A stretch of DNA of 64,000 nucleotides from Bacilli bacterium (GCA_017410525.1 JAFQQQ010000002.1:205591-269590); one strand, 5' to 3'. Positions 14,523-63,867 are shown, counted from the first letter of the stretch. Program-made: numbers and translations. Notes: generated by a model from the sequence alone, not told the origin.

Positions 14523-14551
14523 TTGACAAACAAAAAAAATTAGAGTATTAT
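14523..14551 (+). promoter_or_regulatory. Sigma-A-type promoter of the leader and RSH operon
   Basis: TTGACA (14523-14528), 17-nt spacer, TATTAT (14546-14551). Confidence 0.6.
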
Positions 14552-14593
14552 TTAATGTAATATTTTTATCTTTTTAGACAAAGGAGGAATATT

Positions 14594-14740
14594 ATGGTTA
14601 ATTGCTTTAACATAGAAAGATCAGTGATAAAATCAAAATCTAATGTTATTTGCAACAGCTTCTGCTGCAATACTTTAGTATGCTTTTCAATTCTTTCTTG
14701 TCTAAATGAAAAGATGAAAAGCGATATAGCAAAGTCTTAA
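14594..14740 (+). CDS. Small Cys-rich ORF (48 aa, 6 Cys) within the operon leader; either a RiPP-type precursor or an attenuation leader peptide
   Basis: My translation is MVNCFNIERSVIKSKSNVICNSFCCNTLVCFSILSCLNEKMKSDIAKS. A strong RBS AAAGGAGGAATATT precedes the ATG. The TAA stop (14738-14740) lies in the apical loop of the terminator hairpin. Below the size cutoff of the supplied track. Confidence 0.55.
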   Translation: MVNCFNIERSVIKSKSNVICNSFCCNTLVCFSILSCLNEKMKSDIAKS

Positions 14741-14772
14741 TGACTTTTCTTGTCGCCTTTCATCTTTTTTCT
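14709..14772 (+). terminator. Intrinsic terminator / attenuator between the leader ORF and the RSH gene
   Basis: Outer stem AAGATGAAAAGCGA (14711-14724) pairs with TCGCCTTTCATCTT (14753-14766): 13 bp plus 1 mismatch. Inner stem AAAGTC/GACTTT spans 14731-14747. A TTTTTTCTT run follows. The competing pairing is GCTTTTCA (14682-14689) with TGAAAAGC (14715-14722). Confidence 0.7.
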
Positions 14773-14803
14773 TATAAAAATATAAAAGGAAAAGGAGGGA
14801 TTT

Positions 14804-16237
14804 ATGATAACTATTGAAAAATTATTAAATCATGTAAATACTTATAATCCTGGAGAAGAAGAAATTATAAGAAAAGCTTATGAGTATGCTGATTATTTAC
14901 ATGGAAATCAAATTAGACAAAGTGGAGAACCATATATTACACATCCTTTGAATGTTGCTTATATTTTATCTGAAATGCATGCAGATAGAGATACAATATG
15001 TGCTGCACTCTTACACGATACTCTAGAAGATACAAATACAACTAAAGAAGAAATAGCTGATTTATTTAATAAAGAAATAGCTAACTTAGTAGACGGAGTA
15101 ACAAAGATAAGTAAAATGAATTTTTCTAGTAAAGCAGAACAAAATTTAGCAAACACAAGAAAAATCATAACAGGGCTTACAGAAGATGTAAGAATAATAA
15201 TAATAAAATTAGCCGATAGACTTCATAACATGAGAACTTTAGAATTTAAATCTGAATTTAAGCAAAAAGAAAATTCTTTAGAAACAATGGAAATATTTGT
15301 ACCGCTTGCTTATTATATAGGTGCTTATAGAATAAAAAGTGAGCTAGAAGATATATCTTTTAAATATTTAAAACCAGATAAATATAAAGAAATAGAACAT
15401 AGAATAAATAACTCTAGTATTGAAAATAATAATTGCTTAAATGAAATGTTATTGAATATAGAAGAAATATTAAATAATGAGTCAATACCACATGAAATAA
15501 AAGTTAGAACAAAAAATATATATGGAATATATAAAAGAATAGATAATGGAGAAAACAAAATAAGTGATATACACGATTTATTATCTTTAAAAATAATGGT
15601 AGATGATATAAAAAATTGTTATATAACACTAGGTCTTATACATGATAAATATCATCCAATAAATGGAAGATTTAAAGATTATATTTGTAATCCTAAAACA
15701 AATCTATATAAATCTTTACATTCTACAGTATTTGGGCCTAATGAAAAATTAGTACAAACACAAATAAGAACATTTGATATGGATAAAATAGCATCCTTTG
15801 GTTTAACAGCATATTGGGATATAAATAAAGGTGATGCAAGATATACTATGCAACAAGATTTAAGAGATAATTTTCAATTTTTTAAATCATTATCAGATAT
15901 AAATGTTATGTTTAAGGATAATCAAGATTTTGTATCTCAAATAAAGAATGAATTATTCGCAAATAAAATTTATGTGTATACTACTAACGGTAAAATAATA
16001 GAATTACCTAAAGGATCAAATATTATTGATTTAGCTTGTTATATGGACATAGAAAATGTATTAATAGGAGCTAAAGTAAATGATGAAATAGTTCCTATTG
16101 ATTATATTTTAAAAAATAAAGATAGGGTAATACCACTTATAGATGAATTATCTTATGGATATAGAGAAAGTTGGATAGAAAAAGCGAATACAGTTTATGC
16201 TAAAAAGAAAATAAAGGGGTTAATAGAGAGTAGGTAA
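14804..16237 (+). CDS. RelA/SpoT homologue: HD hydrolase + RelA/SpoT-type domain + TGS, lacking the usual C-terminal regulatory domains
   Basis: HD region: YITHPLNVA...LLHDTLEDT...ADRLHNMRT. Synthetase-like region: RTKNIYGIYKRI...RFKDYICNPKTNLYKSLHST...VQTQIRTFDM...ASFGLTAYW. TGS-like region: IYVYTTNGKIIELPKGSNIIDLACYM. It is 477 aa, against about 730 aa for typical long Rel proteins. Confidence 0.8.
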   Translation: MITIEKLLNHVNTYNPGEEEIIRKAYEYADYLHGNQIRQSGEPYITHPLNVAYILSEMHADRDTICAALLHDTLEDTNTTKEEIADLFNKEIANLVDGVTKISKMNFSSKAEQNLANTRKIITGLTEDVRIIIIKLADRLHNMRTLEFKSEFKQKENSLETMEIFVPLAYYIGAYRIKSELEDISFKYLKPDKYKEIEHRINNSSIENNNCLNEMLLNIEEILNNESIPHEIKVRTKNIYGIYKRIDNGENKISDIHDLLSLKIMVDDIKNCYITLGLIHDKYHPINGRFKDYICNPKTNLYKSLHSTVFGPNEKLVQTQIRTFDMDKIASFGLTAYWDINKGDARYTMQQDLRDNFQFFKSLSDINVMFKDNQDFVSQIKNELFANKIYVYTTNGKIIELPKGSNIIDLACYMDIENVLIGAKVNDEIVPIDYILKNKDRVIPLIDELSYGYRESWIEKANTVYAKKKIKGLIESR

Positions 16238-16240
16238 AAA

Positions 16241-17401
16241 ATGTTATTTAGATTAGTTGCAATTCGTTGTCATAAAAATATAATTTTCTGTGACAGTTTT
16301 AATGAAAACTTTGAAAAAATACAATTAGCAATTCCATCAGAACTTTTCAACTCATTAGGACTTAAAGTAGGTAGTGTAATTTCTACAAATTATCAAATTA
16401 CTAAAAATAAATATGGAAATGATTTGTATTTCATAAATGATGTACAAAATGTATCAAATCATAATAAAAATATATCTTTTAAATCTATAAATACAAAATT
16501 ATCATCCATGAATCAATCTAGTTTTATTAGTGCATTAAATGGTGGAGTTAATTTAAAATATTGGGAAATGAAACAAAAACTTTTAGAAGAAATTAGAAAA
16601 TTTTTAGTAAATAGAAGTTACATAGAAGTAAATACTTCATTGTTAATGGATAATAGAGGTACTAGTACTGTTAACCCTATGCAAGTAAATGGTAAATACT
16701 GTGGTAATAAATATTTAAAAATAACTCATGAATTAGAATTAAAAAAAATTTGTTATCTTACTTTAAAATCATTATTTGAGATAGGATATGTAACAAGAGA
16801 TGTATATTCTACTAGTAAATCTGCTAATCAATATTTAACATTTGAATTAGTTGCACCTATAGAAGATACATTAACAGCAGAAGAATTATATATTTATGTT
16901 TATGAGATTGCAATTAAGTTGGCTGAATCATATGGTATTTCTTATAATGAGATATTTAATAAAATAGAAACAGTGGATGTTTTAAAATTATATTTATCAA
17001 ATCATAAAAAGATTGATAAGAAAGAATTCCTTGAGTTTTATAAAAAACTATTAGAATTAGAAAAAAATATAATATATGTAAATGCGCCTACCAATACTCC
17101 TTTAGCGAAAGAATCAGAATACGGAATACCTTTAGAAACAAAATGGGCTATAGGAAATAGGGGTATAGGTCATGGATATTATGATCAAAATCAGTTATCG
17201 GTTATAGAAAATTTATTTGAATTACAAAAAGATGCACTAAAAGAAAAAGGGATAGATTCCAGTGTTGATAAAGAATACTTAATGACTTTAATGTATGCAG
17301 GTATAGATACAAAAAGTTTAAATATAGGGATTGATAGATTTATGTATAAATTTTTAGGTTTAGATCACGAAGAGAAAGCAATAAAAATATTAGGATTATA
17401 G
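16241..17401 (+). CDS. Divergent class IIb aminoacyl-tRNA-synthetase paralogue (Asp/Asn/Lys-RS-like: OB fold plus a compact catalytic core)
   Basis: N-terminal OB-fold-like pattern (LFRLVAIRCHKNIIFCDS...KIQLAI...GSVISTNYQI). Motif 1-like IRKFLVNRSYIEVNTSLL. Degenerate motif 2, GYVTRDVYSTSKSANQYLTFELVAP. Motif 3, LNIGIDRFMYKFLGL. Confidence 0.6.
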   Translation: MLFRLVAIRCHKNIIFCDSFNENFEKIQLAIPSELFNSLGLKVGSVISTNYQITKNKYGNDLYFINDVQNVSNHNKNISFKSINTKLSSMNQSSFISALNGGVNLKYWEMKQKLLEEIRKFLVNRSYIEVNTSLLMDNRGTSTVNPMQVNGKYCGNKYLKITHELELKKICYLTLKSLFEIGYVTRDVYSTSKSANQYLTFELVAPIEDTLTAEELYIYVYEIAIKLAESYGISYNEIFNKIETVDVLKLYLSNHKKIDKKEFLEFYKKLLELEKNIIYVNAPTNTPLAKESEYGIPLETKWAIGNRGIGHGYYDQNQLSVIENLFELQKDALKEKGIDSSVDKEYLMTLMYAGIDTKSLNIGIDRFMYKFLGLDHEEKAIKILGL

Positions 17402-17411
17402 AGGTGAACAA

Positions 17412-18671
17412 ATGAAAGAAGATAAAATATTATTTTTGTATCCGCCGACAGTTTATGCTAACCATAGTATGTTTAAGCATTTTACTTATTTTGGCGAAAC
17501 GATAGATGTTATAAGTAGATATTATAAAAATATAAAAGTTTTAGACTGTGCAGTTGAACAAATAGAACAAAAGATAATATTTAATAATTTTAAAGATAGT
17601 AATTTATTAGTAATGGAAATAGAACCTTATAACATAGATGTTGCACTATCTTTAGGAAAATTATATAAATCATTCAACAGTAAAGGAAAAATTATAGTAT
17701 ATGGTACTGCAATTACAATAATGCCCAATTATTTTATGAAACAACATTTATTTGATTATATAATTAATGATGGTAATTTTGCTGTTGGTATATTGGGGGT
17801 AATGAATGAAATTTTAAATACAGAATATCCTTATGAAGTTAAGAGTAAATATTATGAATTAATAAATGGTGAGTATATAATGAAGGGTGATAATTTTCAA
17901 CTTCCAATAAAAGATTGGGGTGTTGGATATAATAAATTATTACCATTAGAAAAATATAAATTTTATAATAATGGTATGTTTGAATTAACTGTTCAAACCG
18001 GTTGCCCTTTTAATTGTTCTTTTTGTTCTGAAAAAATATTATTTGATAAGTATTGTGGAACAAAATATAGAGATGTTGAAGATATTATTAAAATAATGAA
18101 AAATATTAATGACGATTTTAATGAAATATATTTTTCTGCTACAACAATGACAGCAAATAGAAAATGGACTGAAAATTTATGTACTAGATTAATTGAAGAA
18201 GGTAATAAAATGCCTTGGAGAACAGTTACTAGAATTGATTGTGTTGATGAAGAATTGTTAAAATTAATGAAAAAATCAGGATTAAAGAAAATTTGTTTTG
18301 GTGTTGAAACGTTTGATGATAAATTATTAGAAGAGATAAATAAAAAACAAAATGCAAATAATGTAATTAATATATTAAAATTATGCAATAAATTAGGTAT
18401 TAAAGCCAAAGCTTTACTTATGTTGGGTATACCAGGACAAACAGCAAAAAATGTTTTTGATACAGTGAAAATATTAAAAGATTTAAATGTGGAATATAGA
18501 TTTAAAGAATATTCTCCTATTCGTGAAGCACATATATTAGATTCTAAAAATTCTGATATCTCTGATATGATTCCTATTTTTAGTAGATATGAATATAGAA
18601 CAAGTAGTATTCCTGGAATAACTAGTGAAGAATATATGGAATTACTTTTTCCTACAGAATATGTGAGGTAG
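17412..18671 (+). CDS. Radical SAM enzyme with an N-terminal B12-binding-like domain (class B type)
   Basis: CPFNCSFC (CxxxCxxC) at about residue 198, preceded by a Rossmann-like ~150-aa domain (ILFLYPP...LLVMEIEP...IIVYGTA). Confidence 0.75.
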   Translation: MKEDKILFLYPPTVYANHSMFKHFTYFGETIDVISRYYKNIKVLDCAVEQIEQKIIFNNFKDSNLLVMEIEPYNIDVALSLGKLYKSFNSKGKIIVYGTAITIMPNYFMKQHLFDYIINDGNFAVGILGVMNEILNTEYPYEVKSKYYELINGEYIMKGDNFQLPIKDWGVGYNKLLPLEKYKFYNNGMFELTVQTGCPFNCSFCSEKILFDKYCGTKYRDVEDIIKIMKNINDDFNEIYFSATTMTANRKWTENLCTRLIEEGNKMPWRTVTRIDCVDEELLKLMKKSGLKKICFGVETFDDKLLEEINKKQNANNVINILKLCNKLGIKAKALLMLGIPGQTAKNVFDTVKILKDLNVEYRFKEYSPIREAHILDSKNSDISDMIPIFSRYEYRTSSIPGITSEEYMELLFPTEYVR

Positions 18672-18678
18672 ATTAGCA

Positions 18679-19707
18679 ATGATTGAACATTTAAAAAGTG
18701 GTTTGTCAATATCGACACATTTAGGTTGTGGATTAAAGTGCTCGTATTGTATTTTGTCAACCATGGACGGTTTTAATGAGGGCCCGGTATTACAAATTAA
18801 ACCCAAGGATTTAATATTTAAATTATTTAATGAATATGAATTTTATTGCAAAAATAAAACACCTTTAATGTTAAATAATAGAACAGATCCATTTTTACCA
18901 ACTGTAACACCGTATACTTTAGAAATTTTAGATTTATTAATTGAAAAGCAAGTCGAGTCTCCAATTATAATAATTTCAAAGTTTGCGCCGCCTACAGTTT
19001 TAAAAAAATATTTTTCTTTATTAAATATTTGTTACTTTTATTCTTATTCTGGTATAGATACTGATTTTAACTATAATAAACTTAAAAGTGATTTACAACT
19101 AATAAAAAATGTTGTTCCTAGGTCTTCTAGATTTCATTATTTTAGACCGATAATACCAGGAGTGAACGATGATTTTGAATTTATGAAAAAAATATTAAAT
19201 ATATTTAGTGAAAATGAATTTGATGCCACTGTAATTGCTGGATTTAGGGTAACTAATCTAAATAAACATTTAATAAAAAAGGAAACGATAGATGTTGAAA
19301 AAATTGATTATAATCATAAATTAGTAGATAGTAGTATATATGAAATAAATAAAATATTTAATGCCGAAAATTATCGTATATTTAGACATACTAGTTGTGC
19401 TATAGCAAACCATTTTAATTCTTTTAACAAATTAAATTATTTTTCAAAATGTGGTCATTGCTTTGAATCATGTCCTAACTATGACAACTGTTTAAATAAA
19501 AGAATAAATATTAAAGATATTTTAAAAGAACTTAAAGAAAAATTTGGTAATGAATATAATTTTAAAATTAAAGATAACAAAATTGAAATATTGTCTTTAT
19601 GTACTCAAGAATTAGTTGCTTATATAAAAAATGCTTATGGGTGTGAGATTATTGCAACCAATGTTAAATTATCAAAATCTGAAGAGGTGATTTTAGGTGA
19701 AAAATAA
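18679..19707 (+). CDS. Radical SAM enzyme (compact, with a C-terminal Cys cluster)
   Basis: GCGLKCSYC near the N-terminus. A later cluster, CAIANH...CGHCFESCPNYDNC, could hold an auxiliary Fe-S cluster. Confidence 0.65.
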   Translation: MIEHLKSGLSISTHLGCGLKCSYCILSTMDGFNEGPVLQIKPKDLIFKLFNEYEFYCKNKTPLMLNNRTDPFLPTVTPYTLEILDLLIEKQVESPIIIISKFAPPTVLKKYFSLLNICYFYSYSGIDTDFNYNKLKSDLQLIKNVVPRSSRFHYFRPIIPGVNDDFEFMKKILNIFSENEFDATVIAGFRVTNLNKHLIKKETIDVEKIDYNHKLVDSSIYEINKIFNAENYRIFRHTSCAIANHFNSFNKLNYFSKCGHCFESCPNYDNCLNKRINIKDILKELKEKFGNEYNFKIKDNKIEILSLCTQELVAYIKNAYGCEIIATNVKLSKSEEVILGEK

Positions 19708-20248
19708 TATTATAGTGGGATGCGATTTACATAATACTTTGTTATTAAGCAATGAAGCTTGGATAAAAGCATTTATAAGTCTTAATTCTAAATTGGATAT
19801 AAATGAAATTTCTAATTTTATATATAGTAAAAAATCAAGAAAAGAAATGGCTAGATTATATAATATTGATTATAATGTATTATTAAATACTTATCATAAA
19901 AATTGTATTCCTAATATAAAATTATTAAATTTTATTAAAGAACTTAAAGTTAAAGGGTTTCCTATTGTTTTAATTTCTTCATCAAGCGAAGAAAAAGTAA
20001 AAAAAGATTTAGAGAAACTAAAAGAATATATTTCTTTTGATAAAATTTATACAAAAGAAACATTTTCTAAAAGTGTTTCTAAAGATTGGGATATGGTTAT
20101 AAAAGAATATAGAGCAAAATTTATGGTATATATAGGAAATGACTATGATGAAGATATAATACATAATGATAAAGTAATATCTATTCTTTCAGGACATTTT
20201 TTTACAGAATTGAAAAAAAACGGTTTTTTAGAAGAAAGAGGTAAATAA
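19697..20248 (+). CDS. HAD-superfamily protein with variant motif I
   Basis: GCDLHNTL (DxH instead of DxD), LISSSS (motif II), GNDYDEDI (motif IV). GTG start overlaps the upstream gene by 11 nt. Confidence 0.55.
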   Translation: MKNNIIVGCDLHNTLLLSNEAWIKAFISLNSKLDINEISNFIYSKKSRKEMARLYNIDYNVLLNTYHKNCIPNIKLLNFIKELKVKGFPIVLISSSSEEKVKKDLEKLKEYISFDKIYTKETFSKSVSKDWDMVIKEYRAKFMVYIGNDYDEDIIHNDKVISILSGHFFTELKKNGFLEERGK

Positions 20249-20250
20249 AA

Positions 20251-21168
20251 ATGGAAATATATTTAAAAAAAGAAGATATAGAAAGTTATCTAATAAATCA
20301 GGAAGAAAATATAAAAAACATGATTGATAATTTAGATTCAAGTTGGCCACATTATAATGCAGTGAAAAAATTATTAGAAGAGACTATGTTAGAAATAAAA
20401 AGAAAAGATATACATTGTAATGCTGTTTTATCTTCTACTAAGCATGAACGAAAAATAGAAAAATATGTAAATTGGGTTGAGGTTTATAGACTAGCAAATT
20501 ATCATTTTTCAAAATATACTAGTAGTAATACTTCTTATAGTGAAGGATTGTTTTCAACATTACTTGCGTTAAATAGTATGTATATACATAATAAAAAAAT
20601 TAAGGATATTGGAATAATTGGTTGTGGTCCAGGAAGAAGCGTTTTAGATTTTTCTTTAGCTTATCCAGATGCCACTATTTATGGTTTAGATTATTCCTTA
20701 GTTTCCTTAGTTTTAGCAAGAAATATTGTTAGTACAAATAATAAAAATATTGAGATTATAAGAAGAGATGATGAAGTAGTATTAGATAAAGTTGAAAGCT
20801 TTAATAGGACAAATTGTAAATGGGGAATGTTTGATTTAACTAAATCTAATTTAAATGAAAAATTTGATATCGTAGTATGTTCAAATGTAATAAATTTAAT
20901 GCCTAATCATAAAGATGCTATAAATAAAATTTATGATATGATAAAACCTAATGGATATTTAATATATGCTGATTTAACTGGTTGGAGATTAGATAGAAAG
21001 AAAGAACAACAATTACTTTCTGATAAAAAAGCTATAAAAAATAGTTTTGAAAACGTAGGCTTTGAAACTATAGAATGTTTTGATGGTGGACCATATATAG
21101 AAAAAGAAAATAAAGATAATTTCACGTTTTATAAACAAACTTATTATATAGGAAGGAAGGTAAAATGA
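20251..21168 (+). CDS. Class I SAM-dependent methyltransferase
   Basis: IGIIGCGPGRSVLDF (motif I), GLDYS, VVCSNVINLM. Confidence 0.75.
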   Translation: MEIYLKKEDIESYLINQEENIKNMIDNLDSSWPHYNAVKKLLEETMLEIKRKDIHCNAVLSSTKHERKIEKYVNWVEVYRLANYHFSKYTSSNTSYSEGLFSTLLALNSMYIHNKKIKDIGIIGCGPGRSVLDFSLAYPDATIYGLDYSLVSLVLARNIVSTNNKNIEIIRRDDEVVLDKVESFNRTNCKWGMFDLTKSNLNEKFDIVVCSNVINLMPNHKDAINKIYDMIKPNGYLIYADLTGWRLDRKKEQQLLSDKKAIKNSFENVGFETIECFDGGPYIEKENKDNFTFYKQTYYIGRKVK

Positions 21169-21824
21169 AAAATATAATATTATTAAGTGGACCTGATAAA
21201 ACAAAATATTTTGCTAAGGAAATATCAAAAGAAATAAAAAATAACGTTACGCATCCAACAAATATGGTTGTAATACCGGCTGATCCAAATAATTATGAAA
21301 AAAATGATAAACAATTTAAAGGGAATGAAAGTGTAGTTGGAGTATTTAAAACATTTAAAAAAATATTTCCAGATATAAATATTGTTTTGTTAGATAATAG
21401 AGTAGATTCTACAAGTGGATTAAACAAGTTGAAGAAAGCAGATATTATTTATCTACTTGGTGGAAATCCTTTTATTCAATTAGAATACTTGCAAAAAAAT
21501 AATTATAGTGATACAATATGCAGCACAAATGCATTGGTTATGGGAGTTAGTGCTGGATCAATGAATTTAGCTGTTGATTCTTATTATTCTAAAGATGAGG
21601 ATTATCCAGAAAGTGTAATTTATAAAGGATTAGGAATTGTTGACATGACTATAGATCCACATTTTGATATTAACAATGAAGAACAGGTTAAAGAAATAAA
21701 AGTTAATTCAAAAGATAGAAAAATTATTGGTTTACCAAATGATTCAGCAATAATTGTTTCAAATAATAATATAAAATATATTGGTGATATTTATTTATTT
21801 GAAAATGGTGAATTAACTAATTAA
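21165..21824 (+). CDS. Peptidase S51 (dipeptidase E / cyanophycinase-like) family protein
   Basis: LLGGNPF, GVSAGSMN (nucleophile Ser context), DPHF. ATGA overlap with the methyltransferase gene. Confidence 0.6.
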   Translation: MKNIILLSGPDKTKYFAKEISKEIKNNVTHPTNMVVIPADPNNYEKNDKQFKGNESVVGVFKTFKKIFPDINIVLLDNRVDSTSGLNKLKKADIIYLLGGNPFIQLEYLQKNNYSDTICSTNALVMGVSAGSMNLAVDSYYSKDEDYPESVIYKGLGIVDMTIDPHFDINNEEQVKEIKVNSKDRKIIGLPNDSAIIVSNNNIKYIGDIYLFENGELTN

Positions 21825-21855
21825 TTAGTTAGTTTACAAGATAGGGGGAATTGGA

Positions 21856-23433
21856 ATGAATTGGGCATTAGAAGAAGCAAAAAAATTAGTTGAAAAGCAT
21901 CCTGAAAAGGAAGAATTTGTAATCGCATCGGGGGTTAGTCCATCTGGATTTATACACATAGGAAATTTTAGAGAAATCGTTACTACATTTTTTGTAGGTA
22001 AAGAATTAGAAAATTTAGGGAAAAAAGTTAGATTTATATTATCGTTTGATGATTTTGATAGATTTAGAAAAGTTCCTAAAGGAATGCCGGAAAGTTATAG
22101 TAAGTATATAGGAATGCCTTATACTAGTATACCTAGTCCATTTAGTGAAAATAAAACTTATGCTAAAGAAATGGAAGATATATTTGTAAGTGAATTAAAT
22201 AGACTAGGAATTAATCCTGAAACCATATCTCAAACAGAACAATATAAAAGTGGAAGATATGATGATAAAATTAAATTAGCTATGGAACAAAGAAAAAAAA
22301 TATTTGATATAATGGCTAATTATAAAACTCAAGAATTTACAGAAGAAGATAGAAATAATTATTATCCTATAAGTTTATATTGTGAAGAATGTGGTAAAGA
22401 TTCAACAACTATATTAAATTATAATGATGTAACAGGTGATGTAGAATATAAATGTACTTGTGGGCATCATCATATTCAAAATATAAATAAATGTGGTAAT
22501 ATAAAGTTACAATGGAAAATTGATTGGCCAATGAGATGGCAAAAAGAAGGGGTAATTTTTGAACCAGGTGGTAGAGATCATTCTGCAGAAAATGGAAGTT
22601 ATGCTGTATCAAAAGAAATATCTAAACGAATTTTTGAATATGAAGCACCATCCTATGTAGCCTATGATTTTATTGGTATTAAAGGCGCTAATGGTAAAAT
22701 GGCTTCATCAACAGGAAATGTTTTAACATTAACTGATTTATTAAGTGTTTATGATAAAAATATAATATTATGGTTTTATGCCAAAAATAGACCTAATCAT
22801 CAATTTAATATAGCGCTTGATGAAGATGTATTAAGATTCTATACAGAATATGATAGGATGGTAAAAGCATATTTTGAAGGTAAATTAGATGATAAAAATT
22901 CTAGTATTATATCATTAACAGGAGTAACTAGTGGGTATGTTAATAATCCTAATTTTGGATATATAGCAAACTTTTTACCGATGGTAAGTTATAAAGAAGA
23001 AGCACTTGCAAAATTATTAAGTAAAGAAAATATTGATTGTTCTACATTATATTTTAAAAATAGATTACTAAGAGCAACCAATTGGTTAGAAAAATATAAT
23101 AATAGTAAAATAAAAGTGTTAGATGAATTTAATCAAGAATATTATGAAACATTAAGTGATGAAGAAAAAGAATGGTTAGAAAAAACTTTAGTTGTTTTAC
23201 AAAATGAATATGAAACTACTCAGGATTTACAAACAGATTTATATGCTATTGTAAAAAATGGTATAGAAGATTCTAAAGAATTAAAAAATAAACAAAGAAG
23301 ATATTTTCAGATAATTTATAATTTAATTATAGGAAAAGATAATGGACCAAAAATGGGATTATTGCTATCTGCAATGGATTATGAAGTTGTAAAATCTAAA
23401 TTGCAAAAATCAAAAGAAAAAAAATTAAGATAA
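21856..23433 (+). CDS. lysK: Class I lysyl-tRNA synthetase (LysK-type)
   Basis: SGFIHIGNFREI (HIGN), GKMASSTGN (KMSKS-equivalent), Cys-rich insertion YCEECG...CTCGHHH. 525 aa. Confidence 0.8.
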   Translation: MNWALEEAKKLVEKHPEKEEFVIASGVSPSGFIHIGNFREIVTTFFVGKELENLGKKVRFILSFDDFDRFRKVPKGMPESYSKYIGMPYTSIPSPFSENKTYAKEMEDIFVSELNRLGINPETISQTEQYKSGRYDDKIKLAMEQRKKIFDIMANYKTQEFTEEDRNNYYPISLYCEECGKDSTTILNYNDVTGDVEYKCTCGHHHIQNINKCGNIKLQWKIDWPMRWQKEGVIFEPGGRDHSAENGSYAVSKEISKRIFEYEAPSYVAYDFIGIKGANGKMASSTGNVLTLTDLLSVYDKNIILWFYAKNRPNHQFNIALDEDVLRFYTEYDRMVKAYFEGKLDDKNSSIISLTGVTSGYVNNPNFGYIANFLPMVSYKEEALAKLLSKENIDCSTLYFKNRLLRATNWLEKYNNSKIKVLDEFNQEYYETLSDEEKEWLEKTLVVLQNEYETTQDLQTDLYAIVKNGIEDSKELKNKQRRYFQIIYNLIIGKDNGPKMGLLLSAMDYEVVKSKLQKSKEKKLR

Positions 23434-23514: not shown

Positions 23515-23997
23515 ATGATAAGAGAAGCTTTAGAAAAAGATGCTGAGAGAATTGTATATATTAATGTAATGTCTTGGAAAAATACGTATAAACATATTTT
23601 TCCACAAGATTTTTTAGATAGTCTTAATCCTATGAGTATTGATAATATTGAAAAATGTAAGAAAAAAATAAATCAATATATAGTATATGAAGTTGATAAT
23701 AAGGTAGTAGGGTTTGCTAGATTTGGATTAAATAAGAAAAATTATGGTAATGAGTATGGAGAAATACATGCTTTATATTTAGATGATAATTATAAGGGAA
23801 TGAATATAGGAACTGAGCTTGTAAAGTATATATTTGAAAAATTGAAGTCAACATATAAATATGTCTTGATAAGTACTTTAGTTGAAAATAATGCTAATAC
23901 ATTTTATAAAAAATTAGGTGGAAAATTTATAGGTCAAAGTGAATTTGAATTAGAAGGTAAAAAATATTTAGAAAATGTATATGAATATGTTTTATAA
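23515..23997 (+). CDS. GNAT N-acetyltransferase
   Basis: ALYLDDNYKGMNIGTELV acetyl-CoA-binding loop. 160 aa. Confidence 0.75.
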   Translation: MIREALEKDAERIVYINVMSWKNTYKHIFPQDFLDSLNPMSIDNIEKCKKKINQYIVYEVDNKVVGFARFGLNKKNYGNEYGEIHALYLDDNYKGMNIGTELVKYIFEKLKSTYKYVLISTLVENNANTFYKKLGGKFIGQSEFELEGKKYLENVYEYVL

Positions 23998-29461: not shown

Positions 29462-29592
29462 CTTAACTGAAAAAGTTAAGTTTTTTTATTTACTTAGAGT
29501 TGGATAAATGGTATAATTGTATTAGGGTAAAAGATAATTAATATTGTAATATTTTTTTATGTGGTAACAGTAAAAAAAGGAGAATGTTAATT

Positions 29593-30546
29593 ATGAAAAA
29601 TGAAATAATTTTATTTGAAAATCAAGATGTCAAACTTGATGTAAATATAAAAGATGACACAGTATGGTTAAATGCAAAGCAAATAGCTGAATTATTTGAT
29701 AGGGATTATAAAACAATTAGAAAACATATTAATAATGCATTGGAAGAAGAATTAAAAGATGAAGTGGTTGTCGCAAAATTTGCGAATACCACAAAACATG
29801 GTGCAATTAAAGAAAAAAACCAAACTCATATGGTAGATTATTACAATTTAGATGTAATAATATCAGTTGGTTATAGAGTTAAATCTAAAAATGGTATTAT
29901 ATTTAGAAAATGGGCAAATAAAATATTAAAAGAATATTTATTAAAGGGATATGTAGTAAATCAAAAAAGATTAGAATATTTAGAAAAAACTGTTAAGTTA
30001 ATAGATATAGCTAATAGGATTGATGATGAATTAGAAGGTAATGAAGCTAAAGAAATATTAAAAGTAATAGGGGATTATTCTAAAGCCTTAGATTTACTTG
30101 ATAATTATGATCATAAAGATATTACAAAAGTTAAAGGTAGTATTAGTGATAAAAAGATAACTTACAAAGAATGTATAGAAATAATAAATAAATTAAGATT
30201 TAATAGTGATAGTAAGTTATTTGCGCTAGAAAGAGATAAGGGATTAGAATCTATAATAGGTGATATTTATCAAACATTTGATAAAAAAGATGTATATAAA
30301 AGTATTGAAGAAAAGGCTTGTAATTTTCTTTATATGATTATTAAAAACCATGTATTTATAGATGGTAATAAAAGAATAGGTGCGACATTATTTATATATT
30401 TCTTACAATTTTATAATATTTTATATAAGAATGGTAAACAAGTAATAGATAATAATACATTAGTTGCTTTAACACTCCTAATTGCACAATCTAATCCAAA
30501 AGAGAAAGAATTAATAATAGATTTAGTTATGAATTTCTTGGAATAA
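29593..30546 (+). CDS. RhuM-family N-terminal domain fused to a Doc-type Fic domain
   Basis: N-terminus VWLNAKQIAELF...YYNLDVIISVGYRVKS...FRKWANKILKEYLLKGY matches the RhuM signature. C-terminus carries HVFIDGNKRIGA (Doc variant HxFxDGNKR). ATG at 29593 preferred (AAAGGAGA RBS). Confidence 0.8.
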   Translation: MKNEIILFENQDVKLDVNIKDDTVWLNAKQIAELFDRDYKTIRKHINNALEEELKDEVVVAKFANTTKHGAIKEKNQTHMVDYYNLDVIISVGYRVKSKNGIIFRKWANKILKEYLLKGYVVNQKRLEYLEKTVKLIDIANRIDDELEGNEAKEILKVIGDYSKALDLLDNYDHKDITKVKGSISDKKITYKECIEIINKLRFNSDSKLFALERDKGLESIIGDIYQTFDKKDVYKSIEEKACNFLYMIIKNHVFIDGNKRIGATLFIYFLQFYNILYKNGKQVIDNNTLVALTLLIAQSNPKEKELIIDLVMNFLE

Positions 30547-45636: not shown

Positions 45637-46074
45637 ATGAGTAAAAATAATGAAGAAGTAAACGTATTAGATGAATTAAATAAAGGTGCTTGTATGGGTA
45701 GAGATGCCATTCACTTTATAATGGATAAAGTAGAAGATGAAAATTTAAAAAAAGAATTAGATAGACAATATAGAGAATACAAAGAAATAAGTGAAGAAAT
45801 AAATAAAATATATCCTGAATATAGTGAAGACGAACCACATAAAACAAGTGCTATGAATAAGATGATGACTTGGTACGGAATTGAAATGAAAACTTTGATG
45901 GATTCTAGTACTTCTAAAATTGCAGAACTTTTAATGCAAGGAACTAATATGGGAATTATTGAAGGTAGAAGACTTTTAAATGATAAAAATACTGATGAAG
46001 AAATAAATAAATTAGTAGAAAAATATGTACAAGTACAAGAAACTGCTGTAGAAAAATTAAAACCATTTTTATAA
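45637..46074 (+). CDS. Hypothetical helical-bundle protein
   Basis: 145-aa all-helical-looking sequence. It may belong to a ferritin-like/four-helix-bundle DUF; not confidently recognised. Confidence 0.5.
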   Translation: MSKNNEEVNVLDELNKGACMGRDAIHFIMDKVEDENLKKELDRQYREYKEISEEINKIYPEYSEDEPHKTSAMNKMMTWYGIEMKTLMDSSTSKIAELLMQGTNMGIIEGRRLLNDKNTDEEINKLVEKYVQVQETAVEKLKPFL

Positions 46075-46126
46075 TAAGCAATGCTTATTATTTTTTGTTT
46101 GAATATAATTAAAAGGGAGTGATTTA

Positions 46127-47071
46127 ATGGATTATAAATATTATTATTCAAATAATAACGGTAAAGACGATTACGGATTAAAATATGTTGATGAGTGTGG
46201 TAATGGATTAAAGTGTACTGAGTATAAAATACAATATCCACCACAGTGTCAATGTGAACAACCTGGTATGGAGTATATGATGCATCCAAGGCCTGTATTT
46301 GATAACCCTAATTATATAGGTTCTGGTAAATTAAAAGATAAAGTTGCAATCATAACAGGTGGAGATTCTGGTATTGGTAGAGCAGTTGCTATTGCTTATG
46401 TAAAAGAAGGAGCTAAAGTTGTATTACCTTATTTAAATGAACATATAGATGCTAATGAAACTAAACAATATATAGATTCTTTAGGTGGTACTTGTATACT
46501 TATGCCTGGGGATATTAAAGATCCTAACTTTTGTGACTACATAGTTGAAGAAGCAATGAAAAATTTTGGTAAGATAGATATACTTGTAAATAATGCAGGG
46601 GTTCAATTTCAAACAAAGAGTTTGCTTGATATAAGTGATGAACAATTTGATGTAACTATGAAAATAAATATGTATTCTATATTTTATTTAACTAAAAGAG
46701 CACTAAAATACATGCATCCTGGAGCATCTATAATAAATGTTAGTTCAGTAACAACTTTCTATGGTGAACCAGAACTAATAGACTATGTAACTAGTAAAGG
46801 TGCTATAATAGGATTTACTAGGGCACTTTCAACAAACTTAGCAGACAAAAATATAAGAGTAAATGCAGTTGCTCCTGGATACTTTTGGACTGCACTTCAA
46901 CCTGCTTGCTGGGAAGCAGAAAAGATTCCAACGCTAGGTGCAGATGCTCCTATGAAAAGAGCAGGTGAAACATTTGAAATAGCACCTTTATTTGTATATC
47001 TTGCAAGTAGTGATTCTTCATATGTTACAGGACAAACAATGCATATAAATGGCGGACTATATAAAGGATAA
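46127..47071 (+). CDS. Short-chain dehydrogenase/reductase (general-stress YhxC/YdaD-like)
   Basis: ITGGDSGIGRA (TGxxxGxG), NNAG, YVTSK (YxxxK), and the N-terminal extension typical of this SDR subgroup. Confidence 0.8.
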   Translation: MDYKYYYSNNNGKDDYGLKYVDECGNGLKCTEYKIQYPPQCQCEQPGMEYMMHPRPVFDNPNYIGSGKLKDKVAIITGGDSGIGRAVAIAYVKEGAKVVLPYLNEHIDANETKQYIDSLGGTCILMPGDIKDPNFCDYIVEEAMKNFGKIDILVNNAGVQFQTKSLLDISDEQFDVTMKINMYSIFYLTKRALKYMHPGASIINVSSVTTFYGEPELIDYVTSKGAIIGFTRALSTNLADKNIRVNAVAPGYFWTALQPACWEAEKIPTLGADAPMKRAGETFEIAPLFVYLASSDSSYVTGQTMHINGGLYKG

Positions 47072-47127
47072 AAAAGTTGTATAACTTTTTTTCTTTTTGC
47101 TCAATATAAAAAAGAAAGGAGATAGTT

Positions 47128-47352
47128 ATGCAAGAAACTTATAATGCAGTACCAAATATTGTTAGTTCAAAAGATTTAGATTATTTAAGTGATATGTTTA
47201 ATTGGAATTATGGTGCTTATAAAAGTAGTTTGAATGCTTCTAATTCAGTTATGGATGAAAATTTGAGTAATCTATTATTAAAAGCATCTAATATATTTCA
47301 TAGTAATATGAGTAAAGTATTAAATATGATTATGGGAGGTAACAATGAATAA
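47128..47352 (+). CDS. Small spore-coat-associated-like protein
   Basis: 74-aa ORF paired and overlapping (8 nt) with the CotF-like gene. Assignment is by context only. Confidence 0.45.
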   Translation: MQETYNAVPNIVSSKDLDYLSDMFNWNYGAYKSSLNASNSVMDENLSNLLLKASNIFHSNMSKVLNMIMGGNNE

Positions 47353-47659
47353 TAGTATTAGTAATCCTAAAACAGAAGTACCTAAAGGAACAAGTATAAA
47401 TGATAAAGATTATATGAATTCATTACTTGGTACTTTAAAAGAAATGGTTAAAAATTATGCAGTTGCTTTAACAGAAGTAAGTAATGAAACTCTATATAAA
47501 GAATTTAAAAATATGTTTGATGAATATACAAATTTACAAAGAGAAGTTTATGAAGTAATGTTTAGAAAAGGTTGGTACACAATAGAGGTAGCAGAACAAC
47601 AAAAATTAGATAATAAACACCAAATACTAAATCAAGAGTTTATGGATTTACAAAGTTAA
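47345..47659 (+). CDS. Spore coat protein F-like (Coat_F domain)
   Basis: DKDYMNSLLGTLKEMVKNYAVALTEVSNETLY...REVYEVMFRKGWY fits the CotF/YraD pattern. Confidence 0.65.
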   Translation: MNNSISNPKTEVPKGTSINDKDYMNSLLGTLKEMVKNYAVALTEVSNETLYKEFKNMFDEYTNLQREVYEVMFRKGWYTIEVAEQQKLDNKHQILNQEFMDLQS

Positions 47660-47721
47660 AGACTTATGTCTTTTTTTGTATACATAAAAATATTATGTTA
47701 ATACTAATATTGGTGATATGT

Positions 47722-49170
47722 ATGAGTATATGGAATAAGAAAGAAATAAAAAGAGATATACAAAGATTAAATAAAGATATAGAAGTAGATATATTAATTA
47801 TAGGTGCTGGTATTACCGGAATGACTACCGCATACTTTCTGAAAGATAAAAATATATGTGTAGTAGACGCCAATAGGATAGGTCATGGGGTAACTTTAAA
47901 TACAACAGCTAAAATAAATTATTTTCAAGAGAGAGTGTATACAAAAATAAAAAATATTAGAGATGAGAAATCAGCTAAAAAATATCTGAAATCTCAAATA
48001 AGCGCTATTAAAGATATAAAAGAAATAATAGAAAAAGAAAATATAAATTGTGATTTTAAAATGGTAGATTCGTATGTATTTAGTAATAAAGAAAGTGAAA
48101 CACAACCATTAAAAAAAGAAATAGAATTTTTAAAAGAAAATAATATACAAGTAAAACAAAAAGAATTGCCTAATAAAATAACTCAGTACTTATCTTACTG
48201 TGTAAGTGATACATATATTTTCAATCCTATAAAGTACTTAGAAGGAATTTATAAAATATTAAAAGAAAAAAATATAAATATATTTGAAGAAACTAAAATA
48301 TTAAAAATAAAAAAGAAAGATGATTATTATATTTGTTATAGTAATAAATATAAAATAAAGACTAAAAAAGTAATACTTGCTTGTCATTATCCTTATTTTA
48401 TATTACCATTTTTACTACCTTTAAGGTCTCATATAGAAAAATCTTATATAGTTATTAGTAGAGTTAAGAAAGATTTGAATTTTACTTGTATAAGTTCATC
48501 TAGTCCGACTTATTCTTGTAGATTTTATAATGATGGAGATAATATATATCAAATATCTTTAGCAGAATCCCATAATACAAGTATCAAACAAAATGATGAA
48601 TATCACTTTAAAAGAGTTAAAGAAATATTTAATTTGAAAGAGAGTGATATAGTAATAACTTATTCTAATGTAGATATAATGACTCCGGATCATATGCCTT
48701 ATATAGGTAGATTAAAAGATAATATTTATATAGCGTGTGGTTATAATACATGGGGTATGACTAATGGGGTACTAGCTGCTAGAATACTGAGTGATATGAT
48801 ACTAAATAAAGAAAATGAATATGTAGAAGTGTTTAATCCTAATAGAATAAATATTGCTAATATAGTAGATTTACCTAACATAATATTTAGTCAAACAAAA
48901 TCATTCTTTGGGCCTAAATTAGTAAAAAACAAATCATGGTATAACGGTAATATAACCTTTATAAATAAAGAAGGCAAAAGTTTAGCTGTATACAAAGATG
49001 AAAAAGGAAATAATCACATTATACATAATAAATGTCCGCATTTTGGATGTAGTTTAATTTTTAATGAAGAAGAAAAAACTTGGGATTGTCCTTGTCATTC
49101 ATCTAGGTTTGATATAGATGGTAGATGCATTAAAGGACCAAGTAATTATGATATCTCTTATAAAGAATAA
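47722..49170 (+). CDS. FAD-dependent oxidoreductase with a C-terminal Rieske [2Fe-2S] domain
   Basis: VDILIIGAGITGMTTA (GxGxxG dinucleotide fold). C-terminus CPHFGC...CPCHSSRF (Rieske CxH...CxxH). ATG at 47722 preferred. Confidence 0.75.
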   Translation: MSIWNKKEIKRDIQRLNKDIEVDILIIGAGITGMTTAYFLKDKNICVVDANRIGHGVTLNTTAKINYFQERVYTKIKNIRDEKSAKKYLKSQISAIKDIKEIIEKENINCDFKMVDSYVFSNKESETQPLKKEIEFLKENNIQVKQKELPNKITQYLSYCVSDTYIFNPIKYLEGIYKILKEKNINIFEETKILKIKKKDDYYICYSNKYKIKTKKVILACHYPYFILPFLLPLRSHIEKSYIVISRVKKDLNFTCISSSSPTYSCRFYNDGDNIYQISLAESHNTSIKQNDEYHFKRVKEIFNLKESDIVITYSNVDIMTPDHMPYIGRLKDNIYIACGYNTWGMTNGVLAARILSDMILNKENEYVEVFNPNRINIANIVDLPNIIFSQTKSFFGPKLVKNKSWYNGNITFINKEGKSLAVYKDEKGNNHIIHNKCPHFGCSLIFNEEEKTWDCPCHSSRFDIDGRCIKGPSNYDISYKE

Positions 49171-49233
49171 ATACAAAGTATTTATTTTTTTATTTTGGTG
49201 TAGTATAATTTATATAGAAAGTAGAGTGGTTTA

Positions 49234-50241
49234 ATGAAAATATTAGTTACAGGTGGTACAGGTTATATTGGTAGTCATACTTGTGTTGAATTATTAGATG
49301 CAGGATATGAAATAGTAGTTATTGATAATTTATCTAATTCCAAAATAGAAGTAGTAGATAAAATAAAAGAAATAACAGGTAAAGAATTTAAATTTTATGA
49401 AGGAGATTGCTGTGATAAAAATATTTTAACTAAAATATTTGAAGAAAACGAAATATCTGCAGTAATACATTTTGCAGGTTTTAAAGCAGTAGGAGAATCT
49501 GTATTAAAACCTTTAAAATATTATAGAAATAATTTGGATTCAACAATAACTTTATTAGAAGTAATGAGTGAATATAGTATTAAAAAAATCGCATTCTCAT
49601 CAAGTGCTACAGTATATGGCAAACCGGAAACATTACCAATCAAAGAAGATTTCCCACTATCAACAACTAATCCTTATGGAACAACTAAGTTGATGATAGA
49701 AGATATACTTAGAGATTTGTATGTATCAGATAATGAATGGAGTATAGCTATACTTAGATACTTTAATCCAATAGGGGCTCATAAGTCAGGACTTATAGGA
49801 GAAAATCCTAATGATATTCCAAATAATTTAATGCCATATATAGTTAAAGTAGCGACACATGAACTTGAGTGTCTTAGTGTATTTGGAAATGACTATGATA
49901 CAAAAGATGGCACAGGTGTAAGAGACTATATTCATGTAGTAGATCTTGCTAAAGGACATATTAAAGCGTTAGAAAAAGTATTAAAAGATAAAGGTGTAGA
50001 TGCATATAACTTAGGTACAGGTAATGGATATAGTGTTTTAGAAATCGTTAATACATTTATGGATGTAAATAAGATAGATGTTAACTATAAAATAACAGAT
50101 AGAAGACCTGGAGACATAGATGCCTGTTATGCAGATCCAACTTATGCTAAAGAGAAACTTAATTGGGAAGCAAATCTAGGAATTGAAGAAATGTGTGAAG
50201 ATGCATATAACTTTGTTAAAAAATTTAAAGAAGACAAATAG
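49234..50241 (+). CDS. galE: UDP-glucose 4-epimerase
   Basis: MKILVTGGTGYIGSH, SSSATVYG, YGTTK (YxxxK), RPGD. Confidence 0.92.
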   Translation: MKILVTGGTGYIGSHTCVELLDAGYEIVVIDNLSNSKIEVVDKIKEITGKEFKFYEGDCCDKNILTKIFEENEISAVIHFAGFKAVGESVLKPLKYYRNNLDSTITLLEVMSEYSIKKIAFSSSATVYGKPETLPIKEDFPLSTTNPYGTTKLMIEDILRDLYVSDNEWSIAILRYFNPIGAHKSGLIGENPNDIPNNLMPYIVKVATHELECLSVFGNDYDTKDGTGVRDYIHVVDLAKGHIKALEKVLKDKGVDAYNLGTGNGYSVLEIVNTFMDVNKIDVNYKITDRRPGDIDACYADPTYAKEKLNWEANLGIEEMCEDAYNFVKKFKEDK

Positions 50242-62865: not shown

Positions 62866-63867
62866 CTATTTCATATTATTTTTCAACCAACTATCTAAAT
62901 TGTCTTTTTTAGTATTACTATATTTACTTTTAGTGTTTATCGTTTCTGAATTTCTAAGAATTTCTTGTCTTTGCTTTTTCGAATCTGGAGTTGCATATAT
63001 CTCTGTTGATGTTATTGAACTATGACCTAGAAATTCTTTAACATATAAAAGCGGAGTTCCATTATTATACAAATGTGTTGCTTTGGTATGTCTAAAACTA
63101 TGAGGATGATAATTTCCATTGAATTTATCTGGATATATTAAATTTAATTTTAAAACTATTTTTTTAATCATTTTATTAATACTATATCTTGAATATTTTT
63201 TCTTATAATTAGAATAAAATAAATAATCATCTCCATAGTTAATATAAAATTCTTTTAAATATTTATTGATTAACTTTACTAATTCTTGACTGATAGGTAC
63301 AATTCTAGTTTTATTACCTTTGCCATATAAAGTAATACTTGCATTATCAGATAAATTTAAGTCATCTAATTTAATATTTATTAATTCAGTTACTCTTGCC
63401 CCTGTTTCATAAAGTACACATATCATCGTTAATTTTTTTAAATCTTTGATACTGTTTAAATAATTTATCATTGTTTTTATTTCATTTTCTGTAAAATATG
63501 ATATCATTTTATTAGGAACCTTTTTATTCTTAATACTAAGAATTTGAGAACAAGATCCAAATAAATCAGGTTCGTTTATTTGGACATACTTGTAAAATGA
63601 TTTTATACAAGCAAGTCTTTGGTTCCTAGTTTGTATTGAAACAGTTCTATCTGTTTCTAACCAATCTAGAAATTGGATTATTACTTCCTTAGTAATTGAT
63701 TCAATTTCTATTTTATTTGGTTTAATATTTTTTTCTTTATTCATAAATTCTAACAACAAATAAAATGTAGTTGAATATGATGATTTAGTGTTCATTGAAT
63801 AATTACATTCACCAATTAAATAACTTGTAAGAAATTCTTGAACTAATTTACTAAATCTATTAGTCAC
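62866..63867 (-). CDS. Tyrosine site-specific recombinase (XerC/D / phage-integrase family)
   Basis: SAM-like N-terminal domain. ETGARVTEL (catalytic Arg context), HSFRHTKATHL (HxxR), LGHSSITSTEIYA (catalytic Tyr). GTG start. Confidence 0.85.
   Translation of the reverse strand: MTNRFSKLVQEFLTSYLIGECNYSMNTKSSYSTTFYLLLEFMNKEKNIKPNKIEIESITKEVIIQFLDWLETDRTVSIQTRNQRLACIKSFYKYVQINEPDLFGSCSQILSIKNKKVPNKMISYFTENEIKTMINYLNSIKDLKKLTMICVLYETGARVTELINIKLDDLNLSDNASITLYGKGNKTRIVPISQELVKLINKYLKEFYINYGDDYLFYSNYKKKYSRYSINKMIKKIVLKLNLIYPDKFNGNYHPHSFRHTKATHLYNNGTPLLYVKEFLGHSSITSTEIYATPDSKKQRQEILRNSETINTKSKYSNTKKDNLDSWLKNNMK

Follow-up and report, generated by a model that had tools for sequence, protein, structure and literature searches.

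The biosynthetic clusters of mupirocin, albomycin, agrocin 84 and borrelidin carry a second, resistant aminoacyl-tRNA synthetase, and the peptidase MccF hydrolyzes the aminoacyl-nucleotide bond of processed microcin C. Lysyl-tRNA synthetase (LysRS) exists in two classes (class I synthetases charge the 2'-OH, class II the 3'-OH), which act jointly on Methanosarcina tRNAPyl and Bacillus cereus tRNAOther. Here we describe a gene cassette in which two radical S-adenosylmethionine (rSAM) enzymes and a haloacid dehalogenase (HAD)-like protein are encoded together with a compact paralog of class II LysRS and a complete class I LysRS. It lies in a 64,000-nucleotide stretch of DNA from a Bacilli bacterium (GCA_017410525.1, JAFQQQ010000002.1:205591-269590), hereafter the window, and the cassette proper consists of seven tightly packed genes at window positions 16241-23433. 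We hypothesize, with a probability of roughly one in three (0.35), that the product of the cassette is an antimetabolite in which lysine is joined to a nucleotide or nucleoside in imitation of lysyl-adenylate (Lys-AMP), and that the peptidase and the linked LysRS protect the producer.

The cassette genes belong to an operon of eight + strand genes (14804-23433; intergenic gaps of -11 to +31 nt). In order, these encode a short Rel/SpoT protein, the class II LysRS paralog (aaRS2p), a first rSAM enzyme with a B12-type architecture (B12rSAM), a second, compact rSAM enzyme (cRSAM), the HAD-like protein (HADl), a methyltransferase, an S51 peptidase and the class I LysRS. For aaRS2p and this LysRS the window shows 100% identity to proteins encoded on a 311-kb contig of a 'Bacilli bacterium' MAG. 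The original prediction had singled out the two rSAM genes and HADl, and had suggested that together with the methyltransferase they carry out multi-step tailoring of one substrate, with the 48-residue peptide encoded upstream, or tRNA, as substrates to be assayed. The upstream LysRS paralog, the S51 peptidase and the recurring link to full-length LysRS did not figure in it.

The cassette is rare, horizontally mobile and spread over multiple phyla. Its fixed core is cRSAM with HADl, usually accompanied by B12rSAM; a LysRS-derived enzyme, a serine peptidase and a full LysRS are often attached to this core. We found cRSAM with HADl, mostly with B12rSAM, in gut Bacilli, Lachnospiraceae, Christensenellaceae, Paenibacillus, alphaproteobacterial metagenome-assembled genomes (MAGs), Marsarchaeota and Parvarchaeota. 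The full Bacilli form (aaRS2p, B12rSAM, cRSAM, HADl, methyltransferase, S51 peptidase, class I LysRS) occurs in the window and in L007-L009, all from Bacilli, Erysipelotrichaceae or 'Tenericutes' MAGs. In the full Lachnospiraceae form, found in L010 and L013 from Lachnospiraceae and on the metagenome contigs L035 and L036, a class I LysRS with a tRNA_bind domain comes first, followed by an optional S51 peptidase, B12rSAM, cRSAM, HADl, the methyltransferase and, last, aaRS2p. One of these loci (L036 4398-6915) has an insert between the LysRS and S51 genes that resembles a locus for a peptide made by the ribosome and modified post-translationally (RiPP), with an rSAM enzyme bearing a PqqD domain, a second rSAM enzyme and a 34-residue open reading frame (ORF).

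The remaining arrangements are more divergent in content. A mobile-element form (L003 and L034, with a relaxase and a MatE pump nearby) consists of a methyltransferase::His_Phos fusion, a HAD gene, B12rSAM, cRSAM, HADl and a methyltransferase. Paenibacillus and Christensenellaceae have cRSAM, HADl, B12rSAM, a GT2 glycosyltransferase and a SPASM rSAM enzyme, with a carrier protein and an AMP-binding enzyme in addition. Alphaproteobacterial MAGs (L014, L025) have B12rSAM, aaRS2p, an S66 peptidase, cRSAM and HADl. In the archaea, B12rSAM, aaRS2p, cRSAM and HADl are preceded by an MIO lyase in Marsarchaeota (L005) and by a class II LysRS in Parvarchaeota (L041). A distant type (L015-L019) is made up of an aaRS2p-like protein, a cRSAM-like protein and a HAD::methyltransferase fusion, and a 666-residue protein elsewhere (P0158, L037 730-2730) is a SPASM-like rSAM enzyme fused to aaRS2p. 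A variant locus, L038, contains aaRS2p, an S51-like gene, three more rSAM genes, a separate B12-binding protein and a NUDIX gene, with an HD-TGS gene nearby.

The genes keep a conserved order, overlap, and are joined in two kinds of fusion (HAD::methyltransferase and rSAM::aaRS2p); the parts therefore work together. The recurring neighbors, the tight packing, with overlaps or spacers of 2-10 nt, and the fusions bear out the idea of a single multi-step unit, although the 48-residue peptide falls away as its substrate. The outcome named as a refutation of the original prediction did not arise: neither rSAM enzyme belongs to a housekeeping family in Pfam or NCBIfam, and by sequence comparison none of B12rSAM, cRSAM and HADl appears to fall in a characterized family. 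Full-text literature searches returned no published description of the gene set.

A complete LysRS adjoins the cassette in three independent settings, two involving separate class I clades and one a class II enzyme. We consider it very unlikely that three independent juxtapositions with a single-copy gene arose by chance, a judgment rather than a computed probability. In the window the linked enzyme is the last gene of the operon (21856-23433; TIGR00467 415.4 bits against a cut-off of 147.55, PF01921 1e-116). It belongs to the clade native to these Bacilli, is 57-66% identical to stand-alone copies in related MAGs, and is probably the sole LysRS of this lineage. The class I enzymes of L010, L013, L035 and L036 form a separate clade with a C-terminal tRNA_bind domain; they are 59-79% identical to one another and share about 40% identity with the window enzyme. 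In Parvarchaeota the cassette is preceded by a genuine class II LysRS, with a score of 610 bits where the cut-off is 468, which weakens the idea that a class I enzyme is obligatory. L010 and L013 are syntenic at greA: L010 has a normal class II lysS beside the extra class I gene and L013 has lost lysS, as though the housekeeping LysRS were in the course of changing class. Comparison of L010 4358-8148 with L013 5136-8696 finds an unrelated 242-residue gene in the place of lysS in L013.

The first cassette gene (16241-17401), aaRS2p, encodes a compact protein with an oligonucleotide-binding (OB) fold and a catalytic core (PF00152) and is, by sequence and predicted structure, a class II LysRS derivative. 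LysRS is its best match in both NCBIfam and the PDB, where E. coli LysS and LysU come first by sequence. An AlphaFold 2 model with a pLDDT of 80.5 shows an N-terminal barrel of five strands together with a class II core, and its top 50 PDB matches in Foldseek are all class II LysRS. Against TIGR00499 the window protein scores 48 bits and archaeal members 140-158 bits, all below the cut-off of 427.6. In the archaeal proteins the alignment with the LysRS profile starts at position 54 and so takes in the OB domain, and PF01336 matches two members of the family. The ATP-binding arginines of motifs 2 and 3 (R186 and R366) are invariant, and equivalents of E240, R262, E278 and R480 are kept, with Tyr at the position of F274, Asp at that of E428 and a nearly invariant His311 at that of Asn424.

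B12rSAM (17412-18671; 419 residues; PF04055 1.9e-22) carries the motif CPFNCSFC at residues 198-205, after an N-terminal B12-binding-like domain of about 190 residues, just as originally read. The cysteines of its CX3CX2C motif (C198, C202 and C205) are invariant among 13 homologues. The designation B12-type holds for the architecture but finds no echo in Pfam, where no B12-binding match was obtained for the window protein and a weak one for a single homologue; a profile of the 13 homologues matches the N-terminal domains of OxsB and TokK weakly, at about 5e-5. Against the PDB the same profile finds AprD4 best, at 1e-23, and MgmA next, at 1e-10. The best NCBIfam match is HpnJ (85.7 bits against a cut-off of 577.6); all NCBIfam matches lie at 30-86 bits against cut-offs of 250-800, and no curated methylase family (PhpK, HpnR, MgmA and others) is reached. 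AprD4 is a diol dehydratase, and neither it nor HpnJ is a methylase. The expectation that the first rSAM enzyme would be a methylase is not supported, its best relatives being non-methylating; B12rSAM appears to have a class B architecture without indication of methylase activity.

The second rSAM enzyme, cRSAM (18679-19707; 342 residues), has GCGLKCSYC at residues 16-24, again as originally read, with its CX3CX2C motif spanning 17-24. Among 20 homologues C21, Y23, C24, NNRTDP (66-71), C240, C261, C265 and C271 are invariant and C17 is almost so. The late cysteine cluster CGHCFESCPNYDNC occupies residues 258-271, and C258 within it varies. Since C240, C261, C265 and C271 are invariant and C258 is not, the putative auxiliary Fe-S site consists of C240 and the CX3CX5C motif (261-271): the auxiliary cluster suspected earlier stands as a conserved set of four cysteines, and C258 drops out of it. 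SPASM or twitch domains have a different signature, and cRSAM has no PF13186 match. It returns zero matches in Pfam and in NCBIfam and is, as far as sequence can define it, a new compact rSAM family.

A profile search for cRSAM yielded 815 representatives among 1.84 billion, 136 of them at E <= 1e-30. Motifs common to the superfamily, distant relatives included, are CX3CX2C, N-x-T-D/E-P, RP and TSC...C..CP..C, the last being the form in which the auxiliary cysteine pattern recurs. The contexts of the distant relatives are consistently nucleotide-related. One (L020) adjoins a thymidylate-kinase-like gene; others (L021-L024) adjoin genes for RNase T, for an AAA_28 kinase-like protein and for dCMP deaminase; one on a Streptomyces plasmid (L045) lies beside thymidylate synthase and nucleoside-diphosphate kinase; and one at 45838-49625 on pSymA of S. 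meliloti (L044) lies beside CBASS and TcmP/DUF5131. Further members are fused to TIR, nucleoside deoxyribosyltransferase-like or TCAD9 and APH domains (P0335, P0337, P0324, P0406), and the TIR-fused protein P0335 (L043 5832-8009) is followed by genes for a TIR-WD40 protein and a Ras-like small GTPase. A recurrent operon can be recognized in L044, L045 and L021-L024, with the rSAM enzyme, a 3'-5' exonuclease and an AAA ATPase, plus an HD protein, dCMP deaminase, or thymidylate synthase with nucleoside-diphosphate kinase. This operon is a candidate for an uncharacterized nucleotide-based defense system.

HADl (19697-20248; 183 residues) shares 11 nt with the end of the cRSAM gene and matches HAD_2 weakly (9.6e-6). 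The original prediction had pointed to CDLHNT in place of the usual DxDxT, and this sequence is indeed found at residues 9-14, with His replacing the second catalytic Asp. Among 12 homologues from bacteria and archaea D10, H12 and N148 are invariant and S94, K125 and D153 nearly so. Motif I therefore departs from the HAD phosphatase pattern DxDx(T/V), reading D10-L-H12-N-T, while motifs II-IV (S94, K125, N148, D153) conform. Because H12 is invariant and motifs II-IV are kept, the change of Asp+2 to His defines a family and is not a sign of decay. Profile comparison places HADl closest, with weak scores, to PH0459, YfnB and the 2-haloacid dehalogenase/azetidine-carboxylate hydrolase group, which likewise lacks Asp+2.

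The class I S-adenosylmethionine-dependent methyltransferase (20251-21168; 305 residues; Pfam Methyltransf_31/12/25/11) has an N-terminal extension of about 110 residues. A methyltransferase follows HADl in several cassette types, and one type has it as a fusion with HAD. In most bacteria B12rSAM, HADl and the methyltransferase have an acidic character, which suits small-molecule rather than RNA substrates. The next gene (21165-21824) encodes an S51 serine peptidase of the PepE/cyanophycinase type (PF03575 1e-17; GVSAGS at residue 127), with homologues in cassettes L007-L009, L035, L036 and L038. The alphaproteobacterial cassettes, L014 (a Rickettsiales MAG) and L025, have an S66 peptidase instead; against the PDB, the L014 protein scores 298 bits with MccF-like proteins, 124-146 with MccF and 94 with murein LD-carboxypeptidase.

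We propose the following route to a lysyl-nucleotide antimetabolite. The AprD4-like B12rSAM and cRSAM, with its auxiliary four-cysteine cluster, would each contribute to two radical reactions that act on a nucleotide or its ribose. HADl would process a phospho- or carbon-ester intermediate, using the retained Asp nucleophile with His serving as acid/base in place of Asp+2, and the methyltransferase would cap the product. Binding both lysine and the nucleotide, aaRS2p would join the two. The S51 peptidase, or the MccF-like S66 peptidase in the alphaproteobacterial versions, may shield the producer by cleaving the conjugate, and the adjacent full LysRS may do so as an insensitive or spare target. 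Such a pathway would explain why LysRS of either class is linked, and would account for the presence of an MccF-like gene, the recurring nucleotide contexts and the patchy spread. The rare, patchy distribution and the presence of one cassette type on a mobile element beside a MatE pump speak for it as well.

Several observations weigh against this proposal. Gly308 occupies the position of the Mg-binding Glu421 in aaRS2p, a LysRS-type OB anticodon-binding fold would be superfluous in a small-molecule ligase, and some cassette types have no aaRS2p at all. The window peptidase is S51, not S66, and no exporter or regulator is encoded within the full cassette. The window cassette shares its operon with rel and a probable housekeeping lysK, and the linked LysRSs score as ordinary LysRS. 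Resistance-type substitutions were also sought in the cassette-linked class I LysRS; there are many differences, but the stand-alone set is one tight clade with no outgroup, so that the comparison is confounded by phylogeny and uninformative.

The main alternative, possible though on balance unlikely, is that lysine is tailored while attached to tRNA. The adjacent LysRS would make Lys-tRNA(Lys), and aaRS2p would either grip this tRNA by way of its OB fold and acceptor-end pocket or charge it with a lysine derivative; the rSAM enzymes, HADl and the methyltransferase would then alter the lysyl moiety or the adenosine at the end of the tRNA. The outcome would be a modified aminoacyl-tRNA that serves purposes other than normal decoding or, conceivably, normal decoding itself. 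The features of aaRS2p that are awkward for a ligase are at home here: an OB fold is present in every aaRS2p type, archaeal members match the LysRS profile through it, and loss of the Glu421 equivalent fits a binding rather than an activating enzyme. A dedicated LysRS adjoins the cassette, the shared tRNAPyl and tRNAOther offer a precedent, and the AMP-binding enzyme and carrier protein that replace aaRS2p in Paenibacillus would follow a parallel tethering logic. However, neither the 15 cassette loci nor this region of the window yielded a tRNA gene with ARAGORN, and Rfam, at gathering and E-value thresholds, gave no RNA element in the cassette. The acidity of the tailoring enzymes tells against RNA, an aminoacyl-tRNA transferase is absent from the cassette, the MccF-like peptidase is left unexplained, and there are cassette types without any aminoacyl-tRNA synthetase. 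We regard as doubtful a more specific version, where full LysRS and aaRS2p cooperate on tRNA(Lys) or an unrecognized tRNA-like RNA and the two rSAM enzymes remodel the tethered lysine or the 3'-terminal adenosine. A pathway centered on tRNA(Lys) might explain why a LysRS of a specific class travels with the genes, given that the two classes charge different hydroxyls, 2'-OH and 3'-OH respectively.

More doubtful still is an inducible anti-phage or conflict system that would make a viperin-like toxic nucleotide analogue, with the LysRS-type proteins as a sensor or a backup for tRNA(Lys), a frequent battleground. Its appeal comes from the distant cRSAM relatives, with their fusions to TIR, TCAD9 and deoxyribosyltransferase-like domains and their places beside CBASS, TcmP/DUF5131 or, for the TIR-fused protein, TIR-WD40 and a small GTPase, and from the cassette type on a mobile element. 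These relatives, however, are just 22-31% identical to cRSAM, and the window cassette has no sensor domain and sits in a housekeeping operon. PADLOC and PHROG contain no match for cRSAM, HADl or aaRS2p, returning generic methyltransferase and rSAM matches only, and 50,697 phage records contained no match.

It is improbable that aaRS2p ligates a cassette-made lysine derivative to a protein, in the manner of EpmA and EpmB on elongation factor P. The pairing of rSAM enzymes with a LysRS paralog does recall that of EpmB with EpmA, a MIO-type lyase/mutase gene adjoins the cassette in Marsarchaeota, and aaRS2p matches the EpmA/GenX models weakly. But these matches reach 33-37 bits against cut-offs of 264-287, and aaRS2p is closer to LysRS than to EpmA in sequence and fold, has no EpmA among its PDB matches and retains the OB domain that EpmA lacks. 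A lysine-2,3-aminomutase-type rSAM enzyme is absent, the link to LysRS would go unexplained, and the cassette also occurs in archaea, which use aIF5A and hypusine.

The region upstream of rel bears on the peptide. A promoter-like site (TTGACA, 17 nt, TATTAT; 14523-14551, +) is the best match in the region, at 11 of 12 positions, and its TTGACA block is kept in four aligned related loci; in this AT-rich DNA the overall count of promoter-like sites does not exceed the chance level. It is followed by the 48-residue ORF (14594-14740, +), which has a strong Shine-Dalgarno sequence and six cysteines. A small ORF stands at the same position in relatives, with a sequence that differs beyond close kin, including in related Bacilli MAGs, and an alignment of five loci upstream of rel shows the promoter and the ORF position alone to be conserved. 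An RNA hairpin with a U run, of the terminator or attenuator kind, overlaps the end of the ORF (14708-14769, +); it folds at -29.7 kcal/mol (z = -6.3), and 0 of 200 shuffles were as stable. Promoter, ORF and the hairpin over its stop (14523-14803) look like a translation-coupled attenuator, and the ORF is probably a regulatory leader, not a substrate. That the rSAM enzymes mature this peptide as a RiPP can be given almost no weight: its ribosome-binding site and six cysteines and the RiPP-like insert of L036 invite the idea, but its sequence changes even among related Bacilli, cassettes of other phyla lack it, it ends in a hairpin as leader peptides do, and the window enzymes contain no RiPP recognition domain.

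The first gene of the operon (14804-16237, +) encodes the short Rel/SpoT, with HD, synthetase and TGS domains (Pfam HD_4, RelA_SpoT and TGS; TIGR00691 502.6 bits). At 477-488 residues (window, L007, L009, L015 and L018) it is missing the entire C-terminal regulatory half, and this truncated form is conserved throughout the Bacilli MAG lineage. We considered rel as a part of the cassette and rejected it: it lies upstream only in that lineage, apart from the one HD-TGS gene near L038, and its position is probably a matter of synteny. Nor could the GNAT gene downstream (23515-23997) be upheld as MccE/RimL-like immunity; its PDB matches are generic acetyltransferases, and outside the lineage it has no linkage to the cassette. 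A 58-residue fragment at 14148-14324 matches only positions 1-46 of the 194-position His_Phos_1 profile and is a truncated remnant. Mobile versions of the cassette carry the methyltransferase::His_Phos_1 fusion, so the fragment may have been left behind by an earlier arrangement of the cassette.

Across the window (1-64000; about 24% GC) almost every sizeable ORF is on the + strand and GC skew is strongly positive. Over the final 2 kb, which include a minus-strand gene (62866-63867), the skew drops to 0.02, and a replication landmark or a strand switch may lie there. An ORF at 29584-30546 combines a RhuM-family domain with a Fic/DOC domain, 3' of a hybrid histidine kinase/response regulator pair, and is unrelated to the cassette.

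If the cassette does make a mimic of Lys-AMP, then bacteria and archaea would share a pathway to an inhibitor of an essential translation enzyme, built with a recycled copy of LysRS itself; we know of no natural product of this kind against LysRS from these organisms. If lysine is instead tailored on tRNA, the cassette would hold a new tRNA-dependent amino-acid transformation and a route to a non-standard aminoacyl-tRNA. The rSAM family, the DxHxT HAD family and the OB-bearing LysRS paralog are new relative to curated family libraries, and their hosts are uncultured gut bacteria and acidophilic archaea. Radical-SAM enzymology gains two unassigned enzymes with a defined genetic context, synthetase biology gains a fresh case of class I/class II LysRS interplay, and a LysRS paralog beside a second LysRS becomes a marker for genome mining.

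Among known systems, several share a part of this plan. Prokaryotic viperins resemble the distant cRSAM branches, in which an rSAM enzyme is found with nucleotide kinases in conflict contexts, but there is no specific sequence relationship, and cRSAM has an extra four-cysteine site and a C-terminal domain. AprD4/AprD3, which act in the C3' deoxygenation of apramycin, and HpnJ supply the closest solved and NCBIfam relatives of B12rSAM, with a B12-like N-terminal domain and chemistry other than methylation; B12rSAM, however, scores far under the family cut-offs, and the cassette has no partner reductase. EpmA/EpmB (PoxA/YjeK), which carry out the beta-lysylation of elongation factor P, likewise pair a class II LysRS paralog with radical-SAM chemistry, but aaRS2p keeps its OB domain and stays far under the EpmA cut-offs, and the cassette rSAM enzymes are not lysine 2,3-aminomutases. 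In the LysRS pairs of Methanosarcina and Bacillus cereus, too, a class I LysRS is encoded along with a LysRS protein of class II type, although here no special tRNA was found and the class II member is a reduced paralog whose metal site is altered; unlike pyrrolysine-type decoding, the 15 cassette loci searched with ARAGORN include no dedicated tRNA gene.

The antibiotic clusters come closer. As in spare-synthetase clusters, an extra full-length synthetase lies beside biosynthetic genes, and L010 has both a normal class II lysS and a cassette class I LysRS; the differences are that the cassette LysRS may be of either class, that the window-lineage copy is probably the only LysRS, and that resistance is putative. 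With microcin C (MccB/D/E/F) the cassette would share a product in which an amino acid and a nucleotide together mimic an aminoacyl-adenylate, and it has a mobile, patchy distribution and, in Alphaproteobacteria, an S66 peptidase that is MccF-like by PDB scores. It differs in having neither a ThiF/MccB-type adenylyltransferase in any cassette map nor a precursor peptide, in that coupling would fall to a class II LysRS paralog, in its two rSAM enzymes and DxHxT HAD, for which microcin C has no counterpart, and in the S51 type of the window peptidase. By analogy, then, the logic of the cassette would most resemble that of aminoacyl-nucleotide antibiotics and spare-synthetase clusters, carried out with entirely different enzymes.

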